The translations under genes and the position numbers were made by a program. A DNA stretch of 31,168 nt from Candidatus Phoenicimicrobium oleiphilum (GTDB lineage Bacteria; Atribacterota; Phoenicimicrobiia; Phoenicimicrobiales; Phoenicimicrobiaceae), in assembly GCA_039638295.1 (NCBI GenBank), contig JBDIWJ010000015.1:1-31168 (forward strand), read 5' to 3'. Each line of letters begins with the position of its first letter. Position 1 is the first letter of the stretch. Shown in pieces: positions 5,209 through 22,033 of this stretch. The notes beneath the pieces are model-generated. The model saw only the letters and a program-made list of their open reading frames with translations, did not search any database and was not told where the DNA came from.

Positions 5209-5322
5209 CAAATCCCCTTCACGGGAGAGGGGATTGCCATGTTCCATATGATAGCTTGCAATCAGAGAACATAATAAATTAATAGACAGGCGAGGCCCCT
5301 GTCTCACTAACGACTATTCACT

Positions 5323-5344
5323 TCCCTGTTTTCACGAGGACAAG
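5323..5344 (+). repeat. 22-nt mini-hairpin repeat, consensus TCCCCGTTTTCACGGGGACA(A/G)G
   Basis: Copies at 5323-5344, 5411-5432 (degenerate), 10203-10224, 15049-15070, 18948-18969 and 21946-21967, all in the same orientation. Confidence 0.8.
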
Positions 5345-5365
5345 ATTCATTAAAGACTAATTTGG

Positions 5366-5394
5366 AGTATCGGAATTTTAAAAATTCCGATACT
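5366..5394. repeat. Perfect palindrome with 14-bp arms
   Basis: AGTATCGGAATTTT-A-AAAATTCCGATACT. Confidence 0.9.
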
Positions 5395-5454
5395 ATGAAA
5401 TGAATACTTTTACCAGTTTTCACGGCTATAAGTTTAAAAAACAATGTACTCTAA

Positions 5455-5546
5455 CAAGATTGTCAGAAAAAGTTTAATATAAACCCGAAATGGAATAAAA
5501 AAGAGATGGAGGGGTTTCAGGGGAGTTCACTTTCCTGACAAACTTG
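5455..5546. mobile_element. Possible MITE / IS-end remnant (92 bp)
   Basis: Imperfect terminal inverted repeats CAAGATTGTCAGAAAAAGT and ACTTTCCTGACAAACTTG; internal AAACCC/GGGTTT pair; no ORF. Confidence 0.45.
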
Positions 5547-5572
5547 ATAAATAATTAAAAGAGAGGAGATTT

Positions 5573-7195
5573 ATGGCAAAATATATTTTTGTTACAGGTG
5601 GGGTAGTTTCATCTTTAGGTAAAGGTATATCTGCTTCTTCTATCGGAAGATTGTTAAAGAGTAGAGGTTTAAATGTCTCTATTCAAAAAATAGATCCTTA
5701 TATTAATGTTGATGCGGGGACTATGAATCCTTATCAGCATGGTGAAGTATTTGTCACCGAGGACGGAGCTGAAACTGATTTGGATTTAGGACATTACGAA
5801 AGATTTATTGATGTAAATTTGAATAAAAATAATAATATTACTACCGGCAAGATATACAAGTCTGTAATTTCTAAAGAGAGAAAGGGAGATTTCTTAGGGG
5901 CCACTGTTCAAGTAATACCTCATATTACTGATGAGATTAAATCAAATATTAGAAATATTAGTAAAATGGGGGAAGAAAAAGTAGATGTAGTAATTGTTGA
6001 AGTGGGAGGGACTGTTGGAGACATCGAAAGTCTACCTTTTTTGGAAGCAATAAGGCAATTTAAAAAGGATATCGGGAAAGAAAATGTTCTCTATATTCAT
6101 GTTACCTTTATTCCATATCTTGAAGCTGCTAAAGAGTTGAAATCTAAACCTACTCAACATAGTGTAAAACAATTAAGAGAAATAGGCATCCAACCTGATA
6201 TAGTAATCTGTCGTTCTCAGTCAAAACTTTCTGAAGAGGTTAAAAATAAAATCTCATTATTTTGTGATATTAAGAAAGAAGGAATAATTGAAGCCGTAAA
6301 TGTTGAATCTATATATGAAATACCTTTAATATTTGAAAAACAGGGATTGGATGAATTAATAATAAAATTATTAAATTTAAAATGTAATGGACCCAATTTG
6401 GAAGAATGGAAAAGGATGTTAAATAAAATTTATCATCCTAAAGGGGAAATTTGCATTGGAGTAGTAGGGAAATATATTAGCTTAAAAGATGCTTATATAA
6501 GCATTGCCGAAGCTTTACTTCATGGCGGTATTGAAAATAATTGTAAAGTAAGAATAGAAAGAATTGATTCTGATAAGGTGAAAAATTCTTCTTCAAAAGA
6601 TATATTTAAAGGAATAGGTGGAATATTAATCCCTGGAGGATTTGGGAAAAGAGGAATTGAAGGTAAGATTGAAACTGTAAAATATGCTCGAGAAAATAAA
6701 ATTCCTTTTTTGGGAATTTGTTTAGGTATGCAATGCGCAGTTATAGAATTTGCTCGCAACGTAATTAAATTAGAAAAGGCAAATAGTACAGAATTTGACC
6801 CTAATACCCCTTTCCCAGTTATTGACCTTCTACCAGAACAAAAAGACATAAAAAATAAAGGTGGGACTATGCGGTTAGGAGCATATACCTGTAAATTAAA
6901 GAAGAATTCACTTGCTTATAATGCTTACCAACAAGAGATAGTTTACGAAAGACACCGACATAGATATGAATTTAATAACCTTTATCAAGAAAAATTTTTA
7001 AAAAATGGGATGATATTTAGTGGAATATGTCATAAATTAAATCTGATAGAAATTATCGAACTTTCAGATCATCCATGGTTTGTTGGTGTTCAATTTCATC
7101 CAGAATTTAAGTCACGACCTAATCGGGCTCACCCTCTATTTAGAGAATTTATAAGGGCAGCAATAGTAAAATCGGCATCGAGTATCACGTATTGA
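5573..7195 (+). CDS. pyrG: CTP synthase
   Basis: [67 protein letters not shown]. Confidence 0.99.
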
Positions 7196-7349
7196 GTATC
7201 GATTAAGGAAAAAAATTAGAATCTCAATTCGTATTTCTTATTTAGTTATCTGGTTAGTTGGTTACTTAGTTAGCTGGTTGAGGAATGAGTATATTGAAGA
7301 ATAAATATTAAACCAATTAACCAGATAACTATCTAACCAAATAGATAAG
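7174..7349. repeat. 7-mer array overlapping the pyrG stop, plus an inverted 8-mer array pair
   Basis: GGCATCG AGTATCA CGTATTG AGTATCG (7174-7201); TAGTTATC TGGTTAGT TGGTTACT TAGTTAGC (from 7243) versus AAACCAAT TAACCAGA TAACTATC TAACCAAA (from 7310). Confidence 0.85.
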
Positions 7350-7413
7350 TGTACAGGTAGACTGTAAAATTTTATAAATTTTAAATTTTGGGTTAAAAAG
7401 TAGGTGATGAAAA

Positions 7414-19778: not shown

Positions 19779-19806
19779 AATATCTAGCTGACAGTGGATA
19801 GCAAAT

Positions 19807-20111
19807 TAGTATCGAGTATCGAGTATATAGTATGTAGTAAAGAAAACAAAAGAGAAAAAAGTAGTGGTTTGATTTATCAAACCCGTAAAAAATCCGGGGT
19901 GGATGAATCCGCCCCCTGCATAAAAAACAATACAACACTATAATAAGTTTTGAATTTTAAATTATGGTTTTTAATTTTTCGCTTTAAATTTTTAGTTTTG
20001 ATATAATCAAGATAAATCTGAACGAAATACGACATACGAGTTATTGTAGACTTTAGAGGGGTAGTTCTTTTTCTAAAATCGATACTCGATGCTATATACT
20101 CGATACTGTAT
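19807..20111. repeat. Composite spacer: 7-mer array, REP-like doublet, TTTTGAA array, inverted 7-mer arrays
   Basis: TAGTATC GAGTATC GAGTATA TAGTATG; doublet 19861-19919; T-rich 7-mers at about 19948-20001; CGATACT CGATGCT ATATACT CGATACT from 20080. Confidence 0.87.
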
Positions 20112-20118
20112 GTAAAGA

Positions 20119-20147
20119 TTGATAAATTAAAATAAGTAAGTTATAAT
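20119..20147 (+). promoter_or_regulatory. Putative sigma70-type promoter for the pfkB-CBS pair
   Basis: TTGATA-17nt-TATAAT. Confidence 0.6.
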
Positions 20148-20202
20148 TTTAAAAATATTAATGAGTAGTTTTAGTATTATAAAAAGGAAGGGATAAAGAA
20201 AT

Positions 20203-21147
20203 ATGATAGCTACAGTTACTTTAAATCCTGCTTTAGATGTAATATTAGAAGTTAACAATTTAAAATTAGATCATTATAATAAAGTTCATAATACTCAATT
20301 AACTTCGGGTGGCAAAGGTATAAATGTATCCAAGGCAGTTAGGGGATGTGGCAGAGAGACCATTGCTCTTGGGTTTTTGGGGGGAGATCGAGGAAGAACT
20401 ATTGAAGAAGAATTAAGAGGGCTAGGCATTACCACCAATTTTTGGCATATTGAGGAAAACACCAGAAGTAATATAATTATTTGGGACAAAAAAAATGGAC
20501 AACATACCTTACTTAGTGAACCCGGCCCCCAAATTACTGAATACGATTTAGAAATGCTTCATTCAATCTTTTATAGAGTTATGTCTCAATGTAGCATAGT
20601 TACACTTTCAGGTAGCCTACCTCGTGGAGTACCGGTAGATATTTATGCGAATTTAATCACTACAGCCAAAGAAAGAGGTGTAAAGACTATATTAAACGCT
20701 TCTGGAGAGCCATTTGTTAAAGGTTTAGAGAAGAAGCCATTTTTGGCTAAGCCCGATATTCGGGAAAGTAACAAAGTTTTTGGTATAGTAATTAATAAGG
20801 AAAAAGATGCTATTGAAGTAGCAAAGGAAGTTGTACGAAGAGGAGCAGAAATTGCTATAGTTTCTTTAGAACTAGAGAAAGATATAATAGCTACCAGAGA
20901 TGAATTATGGTTTGCAGAAACTACTTACCATAAAATTGTCAATCTAATTGGAGCAGGCGATGCTTTAGTTGCCGGTTTTGCTATTGCTTTAACCGAAGAA
21001 GAAAAAAAATTTAAAGAAGCAATTAAATTTTCAATGGCCTGCGCTTTAGCTAGTGCCTTAAGAGAAGAAGAGGAATTTAGTTCAAGAGAAGAGGTAGAAA
21101 AATGTCTGCAGTATGTAAATATTAAAAAATATGAAAATAAAGAGTGA
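20203..21147 (+). CDS. PfkB family hexose-phosphate kinase (1-phosphofructokinase-like)
   Basis: TVTLNPALD, GGKGINVS, LSGSLPRGV, GAGDA. Confidence 0.9.
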   Translation: MIATVTLNPALDVILEVNNLKLDHYNKVHNTQLTSGGKGINVSKAVRGCGRETIALGFLGGDRGRTIEEELRGLGITTNFWHIEENTRSNIIIWDKKNGQHTLLSEPGPQITEYDLEMLHSIFYRVMSQCSIVTLSGSLPRGVPVDIYANLITTAKERGVKTILNASGEPFVKGLEKKPFLAKPDIRESNKVFGIVINKEKDAIEVAKEVVRRGAEIAIVSLELEKDIIATRDELWFAETTYHKIVNLIGAGDALVAGFAIALTEEEKKFKEAIKFSMACALASALREEEEFSSREEVEKCLQYVNIKKYENKE

Positions 21148-21163
21148 GGGGTGAAATTTTAAT

Positions 21164-21616
21164 TTGAAAATAAGGGATATAATGATTCGCGATGTTACCA
21201 GCGTAATGGCTGATTGTAAATTAGTAGATTTAATAAAAATTTTATCCAGACATAAAATAACTGGTGTACCAGTAGTGAACCATAATCAAGAAGTTATTGG
21301 ATTTATATCACAACACGATGTAATCAAAGCTACTTTACCGAATTATTTAGGGATTATAAGCAGTGGTTCTATTCTATCTGAATTTATTCAATTATCTAAG
21401 AAATTAAAAGAATATTCCCAACATCCCATTAATGAATTTATGAGGAAAAATGTTATTACCGTAGATGAAGATGATAACGAAGTTTTAGCAGCTGATTTAC
21501 TGATTAGAAACAAAATACAAAGACTTCCTGTTCTCAGAGGGGGGAAATTAGCAGGAATAGTAACCTTAACTGATATCTGTCGAATTCTTATTGAGAAAAA
21601 TGAAAAAAAAGAATAA
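21164..21616 (+). CDS. CBS domain pair protein
   Basis: IRDIM, ITGVPVV...GFIS..D, IQRLPVL..GKLAGIVT..DI; TTG start after GAGGGGTG. Confidence 0.9.
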   Translation: MKIRDIMIRDVTSVMADCKLVDLIKILSRHKITGVPVVNHNQEVIGFISQHDVIKATLPNYLGIISSGSILSEFIQLSKKLKEYSQHPINEFMRKNVITVDEDDNEVLAADLLIRNKIQRLPVLRGGKLAGIVTLTDICRILIEKNEKKE

Positions 21617-21621
21617 TGAAA

Positions 21622-22033
21622 TTAGTATATAGTGAATAGTAATAAAACGAAAAACAAAGTTCGTATCTCGTATCTCGTGAATCGTATCTCATTGAGAAAT
21701 AAGTATTGAGTATATAGTATCGAGTATATAGTTAAGAAAATAATAATGTATAATATGTAGGGGCACGATGCATCGTGCCCACCAGAAAAATCAAGAAAAA
21801 CCTCGGGTCGGATAAATTCGAACCCTACATTAAAATTACTACTTTATACGAAATATTTTGAATTTTGTATTATAGTTTTTCGCCTTTTGCTTTAAGTTTT
21901 TACTTTAAAAAGGATAGATCAGAACTAATAGACAGGCGAGCCTGTTTCTTGTTTCCACCGGGACAGGCTCCGTATTCACTCCTGAATTCTGATTTTCTTA
22001 ACGAGATACTCGATACGCGATACGATATACTAA
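21622..22033. repeat. Composite spacer: three 7-mer arrays, GTAG doublet, TTTTGAA array, hairpin with 22-nt insert, inverted 7-mer array
   Basis: TCGTATC TCGTATC TCGTGAA TCGTATC from 21661; doublet 21757-21828; ACGAGAT ACTCGAT ACGCGAT ACGATAT from 22001. Confidence 0.88.

Follow-up and report, generated by a model that had tools for sequence, protein, structure and literature searches.

A 22-nt gene-less hairpin element inserted into other repeats of Candidatus Phoenicimicrobium oleiphilum and found across bacterial phyla

The stretch of DNA analysed here, called the window, comprises 31,168 nt of Candidatus Phoenicimicrobium oleiphilum (Atribacterota; GenBank assembly GCA_039638295.1, contig JBDIWJ010000015.1, positions 1 to 31,168) and holds six copies of a 22-nt hairpin-plus-tail element that lodges in other repeats. 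The window is contig C15 of a 1.65-Mb assembly (genome G000), 33% GC; G000 denotes the genome under study, other G numbers relatives or other genomes, C numbers contigs of G000 and L numbers single loci. Its open reading frames (ORFs) are co-directional housekeeping genes, among them uvrC, pyrG, rho, tdk, thyX, prfA, prmC, upp, tmk and metG, and its spacers are dense with heptamer runs and with hairpins of the GTAG and CGTC type. All six copies lie on the + strand and all are intergenic. Directly supported are a fixed 21-nt core, a paired first base, a one-sided target preference and covariation between tail and target, together with repeated filling, self-nesting and passive amplification along with host repeats and insertion sequence (IS) elements. 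The copies and their hosts in the window are the following.

5284..5304, - strand: repetitive extragenic palindrome (REP) hairpin of the GTAG type, a host family, empty here; same hairpin in L003/L004
5306..5362, + strand: heptamer run hosting copy 1
5323..5344, + strand: copy 1 of the element, within a run of CACTA(A/T)-type heptamers; empty orthologous site in G006 and G010
5363..5491, + strand: host repeat B, with approximate limits and a length of about 130 nt; 35 copies found in G000, of which 18 filled, 17 empty
5411..5432, + strand: element, copy 2 (TACC subtype), lying within a T-run of host repeat B
10203..10224, + strand: element, copy 3, exact consensus
15049..15070, + strand: copy 4 of the element, within a run of TTTTGAA-type heptamers; empty orthologous site in G004
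18938..18993, + strand: host repeat of copy 5, GATTGC...GCAATGAC type; partner repeat at 19004-19033
18948..18969, + strand: element, copy 5 (CCCCT/CAGG subtype)
21941..21973, - strand: truncated seventh copy, of which only the tail and the first half of the stem are left, interrupted by copy 6; 9/11 nt match
21946..21967, + strand: element, copy 6 (decayed), nested in the opposite-strand copy; same nesting in L040, C22, C34 and C18

The original prediction described six same-orientation copies and held that, in four cases, deletion of exactly 22 nt gives back the interrupted repeat. All six were recovered at their positions on the + strand, with 2, 5, 0, 4, 6 and 5 mismatches to the proposed consensus for copies 1 to 6, respectively; only two of the six have at most 3 mismatches, a level that shuffled sequences reach 0.00 times. 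Profile scores of the same copies are 34.7, 24.0, 38.7, 25.7, 29.1 and 15.2 bits. The suggested genome-wide profile count yielded 86 hits of at least 18 bits in G000 compared to 3 in a Markov-5 null, and 64 of at least 24 bits compared to 0, ten of the 86 lying inside crude ORF calls and some being probably false. A search of Rfam gave no family on the 22-nt element.

The search for empty sites in relatives, likewise suggested, found exactly 22 nt less at two copies. Deletion of 5323-5344 was said to restore a heptamer run, and the orthologous spacers of G006 and G010 lack precisely these 22 nt; the same holds for 15049-15070, for which the orthologous prmC spacer of G004 is an uninterrupted heptamer run; a MAFFT alignment put the gap of 22 nt at the border of that run. 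At both of these orthologue-proven sites a target duplication is absent. No orthologous empty site was obtained for the copies at 5411, 18948 and 10203, the spacers of relatives being too diverged or the whole stretch gone: G001 lacks the region around copy 3 (about 10189-10239) in its orthologous spacer, and this region is possibly a decayed nest, a weak assignment whose middle layer scores -1 bit. In all contigs of six different runs, which drop rare variants, no joint skipping a window copy was present; two run contigs (X8 and X4) cover 4900-5900 with no difference, and loose contig ends at 5411/5433 are best explained as empty paralogues of host B.

The perfect 18-nt hairpin expected on deletion of 21946-21967 did not survive the comparison, as the orthologous spacer of G006 has a 21-nt GTAG-type hairpin instead. 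This case was misparsed: copy 6 is a nest inside an opposite-strand copy, whose tail side is formed by 21941-21945 plus 21968-21973 and comes after 21930-21940, the left portion of a REP of the GTAG type. We infer this minus-strand seventh copy because the host is empty in G006 and intact composites with the same nesting exist elsewhere. For 18948-18969, restoration by exactly 22 nt was not seen; the net gain is 21, the host has no exact empty form and most empty paralogues have one extra base. This host repeat family also flanks one gene of G000 for a small GIY-YIG nuclease resembling Ssn. When boundaries were varied over a grid in G000, joined 8+8 flanks recurred (at most 1 mismatch) for 46 of the 86 copies at the predicted boundaries, for 49 at a +1/+1 shift and for 5-35 in the remaining cells; exact matches are unclean, with 8 and 9 in these two cells versus 11 in one off-register cell, from T-runs.

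The notion of a very small gene-less unit inserted without target duplication is thus upheld by empty orthologues and by at least 21 unrelated contexts, but a fixed boundary holds only with qualification, the tail-side junction differing by lineage and host (+21, +22, +23). The 86 copies of G000 fall into 37 flank clusters, 21 of which include a copy of at least 24 bits, and so many unrelated contexts rule out that the element is a constant component of a single larger one. Its description as a non-autonomous mobile unit also stands, but much of the copy number reflects hitch-hiking with amplified hosts: 14 of 21 inspected copies of G018 sit in one heptamer composite and 20/20 sampled copies of G031 in NTS-like hairpins. 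Copy number overstates mobility because many copies ride such amplified composites. On the tree of host B, the 18 filled and 17 empty copies are interleaved with 12 label changes, no fewer than with shuffled labels, at least 6 of them forced by strong branches, and a single filled clade is rejected (p-AU 5e-73); the tree is based on 140 columns, and exchange between copies could contribute. As judged from this tree, the site in host B was filled repeatedly, or the filled state was exchanged between copies. Self-insertion occurs on the same strand after base 7 (a cluster of 9 copies) and on the opposite strand between bases 17 and 18. A tendency of empty sites to be hairpins was not general, z falling below -2 in only 30 of 128.

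Several related observations accompany these copies. Two copies with identical flanks (C4:70955 and C8:2034 of G000) point to a duplicated segment. Sister elements of 23-24 nt share tag and stem and carry a CYTGA-type or other loop; G000 has three, and they were located in C3 and C17 and in L038, L253, L284, L226, L238, L242 and L350. Another insert of about 30 nt, CCTG...CAGG, is nested in itself and in REP loops in the spacers L269 of G014 and L284 of G008.

Outside G000, the element pattern occurs in 24 of the 29 other genomes of the family, in 1 of 22 genomes of the sister family and in 0 of 34 elsewhere in the phylum. A scan of GTDB gave 126 loci from 3 of its 64 parts, with about 3000 stretches estimated and about 4 expected by chance (arithmetic for uniform bases); the titles of these loci name about 20 phylum-level groups, one locus being cyanobacterial (L086). 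Two named Atribacterota records (L075 and L117) have the same composites as G000. Among Dehalococcoidia, the exact pattern matches 47 times in G031 (a single contig), 43 times in G034 and once in G033, and many copies of the G031 chromosome repeat the core of the window copy at 10203 letter for letter. Twenty viral contigs hold the element, and a scan of 41 of their 77 neighbouring frames found no nuclease, reverse transcriptase (RT) or Y1 family. At hand-picked non-repeat loci (40 chosen, 37 scanned, 105 of 121 frames), a transposase-type Pfam domain adjoins 13 of the 37, in both senses. In a Patescibacteria locus (L149:2-622) the element lies antisense in a glycosyltransferase gene, both flanking frames being in phase across it.

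Insertion into transposase genes gave the cleanest view of the junctions. Three Dehalococcoidia IS families with the Pfam domains DDE_3, DDE_Tnp_1 and none for the third, which from their motifs we take to be IS630, IS1380 and ISAs1, were aligned with empty relatives, and at nine sites, two of them antisense, 23 nt had been cleanly gained. The insert comprises core bases 2-22 plus CT and follows a target C. At one IS site a 24-nt sister element with another loop occupies the same base, in two lineages, and an empty IS copy nests among filled ones on the tree. In the hairpin hosts of G031, 9 of 13 empty-form matches read TTTC and the filled form is the element plus CTT, giving a gain of 22 with a carried C. 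As read from these alignments, only the tail-side junction shifts, by a base, the one on the stem side being fixed. One IS family of G031 (L335-L347) has a frameshifting insert in 13 of 14 copies, intact 10-bp target duplications in 10 of 11 checked and a single uninterrupted relative, 53% identical; transposition of the filled IS, insert included, took place at least 10 times. Eight filled lineages of another IS, seven of which have an identical insert, give a ratio of nonsynonymous to synonymous rates (dN/dS) of about 0.12-0.31, their differences being mostly silent; close filled pairs of the DDE_3 family give 0.3-1.7 on few changes, and some filled copies have further frameshifts. Purifying selection was not established among 8 near-identical filled copies, in which 9 of 18 changes are synonymous (p 0.016 naive, p 0.13 given the mutation spectrum).

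Structure and target were compared in 129 cross-phylum contexts, in which bases 1 and 18 form T-A or C-G in 124 and bases 7 and 12 are paired in 126, at positions left free in the search pattern. On the strand as first read, A.C oppositions exceed G.T oppositions (79 versus 40), and 4/4 variants fold better on the reverse strand, which consists of a 5'-CYTG tag, a 7-bp stem and a GAAA loop and whose 5' hexamers begin CTTG, CCTG or CATG. Target information is confined to the tail side (0.89, 0.97 and 0.51 bits, versus at most 0.24 upstream). After CT, the next base is C 30 times and T 9 times for CAGG tails, compared to C 0 and T 23 times for CAAG tails (p 5e-10), and this covariation keeps its direction in three GC strata (p 0.06, 0.018 and 0.0004) and persists with the stem held constant (p 2.5e-4). 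The third base past the tail is complementary to tail base 21, and C^CTG, the commonest IS target, is the reverse complement of CAGG. In these sequence comparisons the tail matches the landing-site DNA, and it is likely that targets are picked by base pairing. A strand bias, proposed for testing against both transcription and replication, was seen for the former, with sense orientation in 48 of 65 co-directional spacers of G000 (p 1.5e-4) and the better-folding strand usually being the non-transcribed sense; an effect of replication is inseparable in G000 from that of gene direction (the 6 discordant cases split 3:3), and G031 has no replichore pattern (26 forward and 21 reverse, interspersed).

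We tentatively propose, at a probability of roughly 0.4, that this 22-23-nt gene-less hairpin-plus-tail element moves as single-stranded DNA, finds its target by tail-target pairing and borrows a hairpin-binding nuclease, most likely Ssn, a small GIY-YIG enzyme. The working strand would be the reverse complement, with its tag, stem and loop. Nicking a few bases 5' of the tag would release that end and so account for the one-base variation being limited to this junction; the tag would pair with target DNA exposed as a single strand, in many cases the loop of a hairpin, and repair by the host would finish the copy. Horizontal spread may proceed by riding IS elements, Ssn/REP cassettes and phages. 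Ssn-like genes flanked by CGTC-type hairpins, so named by size, GIY-YIG type and CGTC flanks and not by alignment with SsnA itself, were found in G000 (two) and in 5/5 Dehalococcoidia genomes, one being partial. The reverse-strand hairpin core and loops of the element are those of CGTC/NTS hairpins, and 27 of the 129 contexts lie in hairpins of this type. According to the available part of PMC11893778, SsnA binds its hairpin as one single strand only, cuts single-stranded DNA a few bases 5' of the hairpin tag at a position displaced by one base from one homologue to another, and accepts extended loops; our reading of the oligonucleotide lengths given there places the cut 3 nt 5' of the tag. 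Single-strand hairpin cutting of this kind agrees with the hairpin held in common, with the end that varies and with the element's preference of hosts.

A number of observations weigh against a role for Ssn and against the pairing rule. In that same part of PMC11893778, SsnA is shown to cut and not to join, and its binding needs a C after the palindrome, which is not part of the element. With 10-nt flanks and both strands considered, 0/86 copies match the SRM motif, of which 10 true matches lie elsewhere in G000. Ssn-like genes are flanked by SRM-type (CGTC-type) repeats and not by the element, which, like its sisters, is found inside an Ssn-gene flank only as a guest (L202, L253, L350 and L354). 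Within the family, Ssn presence is flat against copy number (6 of 9 rich versus 5 of 13 poor genomes, p 0.39); outside it, Ssn occurs in 15 of 56 genomes, none with an element-pattern match; and the query used did not find it in the fragmented assemblies G001, G073 and G076, which have 8, 7 and 14 copies. With the stem held fixed, the tail does not predict the first base that follows it (p 0.6); in the home genome, the three contexts T^ATT, A^ATT and T^AAT obey the pairing rule only with an offset; and the contexts are not independent, so that the p values overstate. The contigs of the six runs also gave no empty allele inside the population. Among the genes inspected in G000, at loci of relatives and on viral contigs, none is bracketed by the element, so the suggested search for an HUH/Y1, GIY-YIG or RT gene flanked by the 22-mer came out empty. 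A bolder form of the proposal, which we consider rather doubtful, would make these elements pan-bacterial, self-guiding micro-transposons of 22-24 nt, whose hairpin, a mimic of the Ssn substrate, recruits the 100-residue GIY-YIG nuclease while base pairing by the 4-nt tail sets the target; the movement of CGTC-type repeats, and of elements resembling the small dispersed repeats (SDRs) of Nostoc, would in that case fall to Ssn, and the insert would perhaps be removable from the transposase genes that it interrupts.

Alternatively, no dedicated enzyme might be involved, a hairpin being captured by rare template switching or repair and then multiplied by gene conversion among paralogous repeats and by host amplification. 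In favour of this, subtype is tied to host context in G000, composites are amplified whole, the filled IS of G031 transposed with its insert, and short mosaic alignments can mimic repeated gains. What makes it unlikely is the recurrence of the same core boundaries in the at least 21 unrelated contexts of one genome, the identical sequence in about 20 phylum-level groups, the two sister elements at the same base, and synonymous differences at most 6 nt from the insert among filled IS lineages, which imply that there was no long co-conversion tract.

The original prediction favoured an HUH/Y1 enzyme (REP-associated tyrosine transposase, RAYT, or IS200/IS605 TnpA) that cuts and joins a single strand with the tag as guide, an idea that must now be judged quite improbable. 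HUH enzymes do carry out strand transfer, and absence of target duplication, one-sided specificity and the presence of Y1 genes in 29 of 31 Atribacterota genomes agree with it, as does the tetranucleotide 5' of the working-strand hairpin, which holds the HUH guide position in the accessible part of PMC8266576. Most +23 sites can also be read as cut at C|T, the RAYT cleavage dinucleotide, a reading that fits most CAGG-type targets by rotation but not CAAG-type sites or the donor's other end. Against it, Y1 was not found in four of five Dehalococcoidia carriers (G031, G033, G034 and G035), including the single-contig G031 and G034 with their many matches. The sole Y1 gene of G000 (C23:17592-18488, 299 codons) is flanked by its own, unrelated GGTGCCAGGCACC-type inverted repeats, and 0/10 fetched Y1 loci of relatives are bracketed by the element, two holding one distant profile hit. 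Furthermore, the element has one hairpin only, its tag is CYTG and not GTAG, and its junction varies by a base.

Equally improbable is that an RT uses nicks able to pair with the donor flank to copy in an element transcript along with a few bases of flank, the covariation being inherited linkage. The carry-over of 1-2 pyrimidines at one junction, the sense bias in co-directional spacers and RT genes in 4/5 Dehalococcoidia genomes would suit this route, and an RNA route was reportedly proposed for the Nostoc SDRs; on the other hand, RT was not found in G000 (91% complete), G001, G004, G017 and G035, the better-folding strand is usually the non-transcribed one, and linkage leaves the complementarity of the covariation unexplained. 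That the insert is removed or bypassed by precise excision, splicing or frameshifting, leaving interrupted transposase genes at work, would be an addition to a mobility mechanism and not a replacement, and is very unlikely: the near-complete filling of the G031 IS family with its intact duplications and distant uninterrupted relative, and the low dN/dS of the other IS, speak for it, but inserts occur in both orientations, the silent excess loses significance given the mutation spectrum, close DDE_3 pairs and further frameshifts disagree, and repeated filling plus help in trans explains the same pattern.

Of known systems, the Nostoc SDR elements (reported by Elhai et al. in 2008) come closest in description. 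They reportedly measure 21-27 nt, keep their structure by compensatory changes, lodge in heptamer repeats and mini-transposons, nest in themselves and are confined to one cyanobacterial subgroup. Compared to these features, our element agrees in size (22-23 nt, sisters 23-24 nt), in compensatory structure (pairs 1/18 and 7/12) and in lodging in heptamer repeats, in mini-transposons and in itself with empty sites, but not in confinement, since it is found letter for letter in about 20 phylum-level groups. By analogy it works like the SDRs, a likeness drawn from their described features; new are the complementarity of tail and target, the filling of IS genes more than once and the connection to Ssn. 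In the available parts of the literature, SDR5 inserts precisely at a fixed position of its target HIP1 (PMC4390886), and Nostoc SDRs are cited in PMC3116915, PMC4390886 and PMC2884548.

The element fails the tests for membership of REP/RAYT, SRM, IS200/IS605 derivatives and DDE-type MITEs (miniature transposable elements with inverted repeats). Gene-less IS200/IS605 derivatives insert without target duplication and with one-sided specificity at the insertion point. The element shares these traits, but it has one 7-bp hairpin in 22 nt and no separate left and right end hairpins, its junction varies by a base, and a Y1 gene was not found in several carriers. From a DDE-type MITE it differs by its asymmetric tail, by having no terminal inverted repeats and by the absence of duplication at orthologue-proven sites. 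With the NTS/SRM hairpins, the Ssn substrates (Chenal et al. 2025, PMC11893778, available part), it has in common the inner hairpin and loops on the reverse strand and a strand-specific single-stranded hairpin; SRMs are frequent hosts and Ssn-like genes co-reside. It lacks their outer ATT/AAT stem and the C after the palindrome, fits the SRM motif in no copy, does not flank Ssn genes, and inserts into other sequences, which that part of the report does not describe for SRMs. Like tagged REPs (GTAG, CGTC; Di Nocera et al. 2013, PMC3733652) and RAYT/TnpA-REP systems (PMC8266576), as presented in the accessible parts of these papers, it has a 4-nt tag at the 5' hairpin foot and a 4-5 nt loop; unlike them, its tag is CYTG, it has no 3' tail, it occurs as single copies inside other repeats and not as dimers, and it flanks no transposase. 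Our literature search, outside which most subscription papers fell, gave no description of this element family.

Other features of the window deserve mention. An FMN riboswitch (flavin mononucleotide; 94.9 bits) lies at 30010-30204, upstream of a 176-aa ORF at 30352. Between rho and tdk, a small ORF (9934-10170), which we take to resemble ribosomal protein L31, is kept in relatives. The prmC spacer (14888-15132) is a hot spot for different repeat-plus-gene cassettes: in G018 (L268) a short ORF, presumably encoding a four-helix-bundle protein, lies between facing heptamer runs, in G010 (L281) an Ssn-like GIY-YIG gene lies between CGTC-type repeats, and G008 (L284) has a stack of REPs with other micro-inserts.

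How units of about 20 nt move has been a question ever since the Nostoc SDR report. For the present family there are empty sites proven by orthologues, a rule at the level of sequence (the tail complements the target) and few candidate enzymes, HUH and RT each not being found in some carriers; the question thereby becomes testable with oligonucleotides and one small protein. By frameshifting transposase genes across phyla and interrupting repeats, the element affects annotation and may dampen IS activity. If true, tail-programmed insertion would be a minimal DNA-guided insertion system; if the micro-transposon form also holds, a change of one tail base would retarget insertion, and the mover that CGTC-type repeats and SDR-like elements have long lacked would be Ssn.

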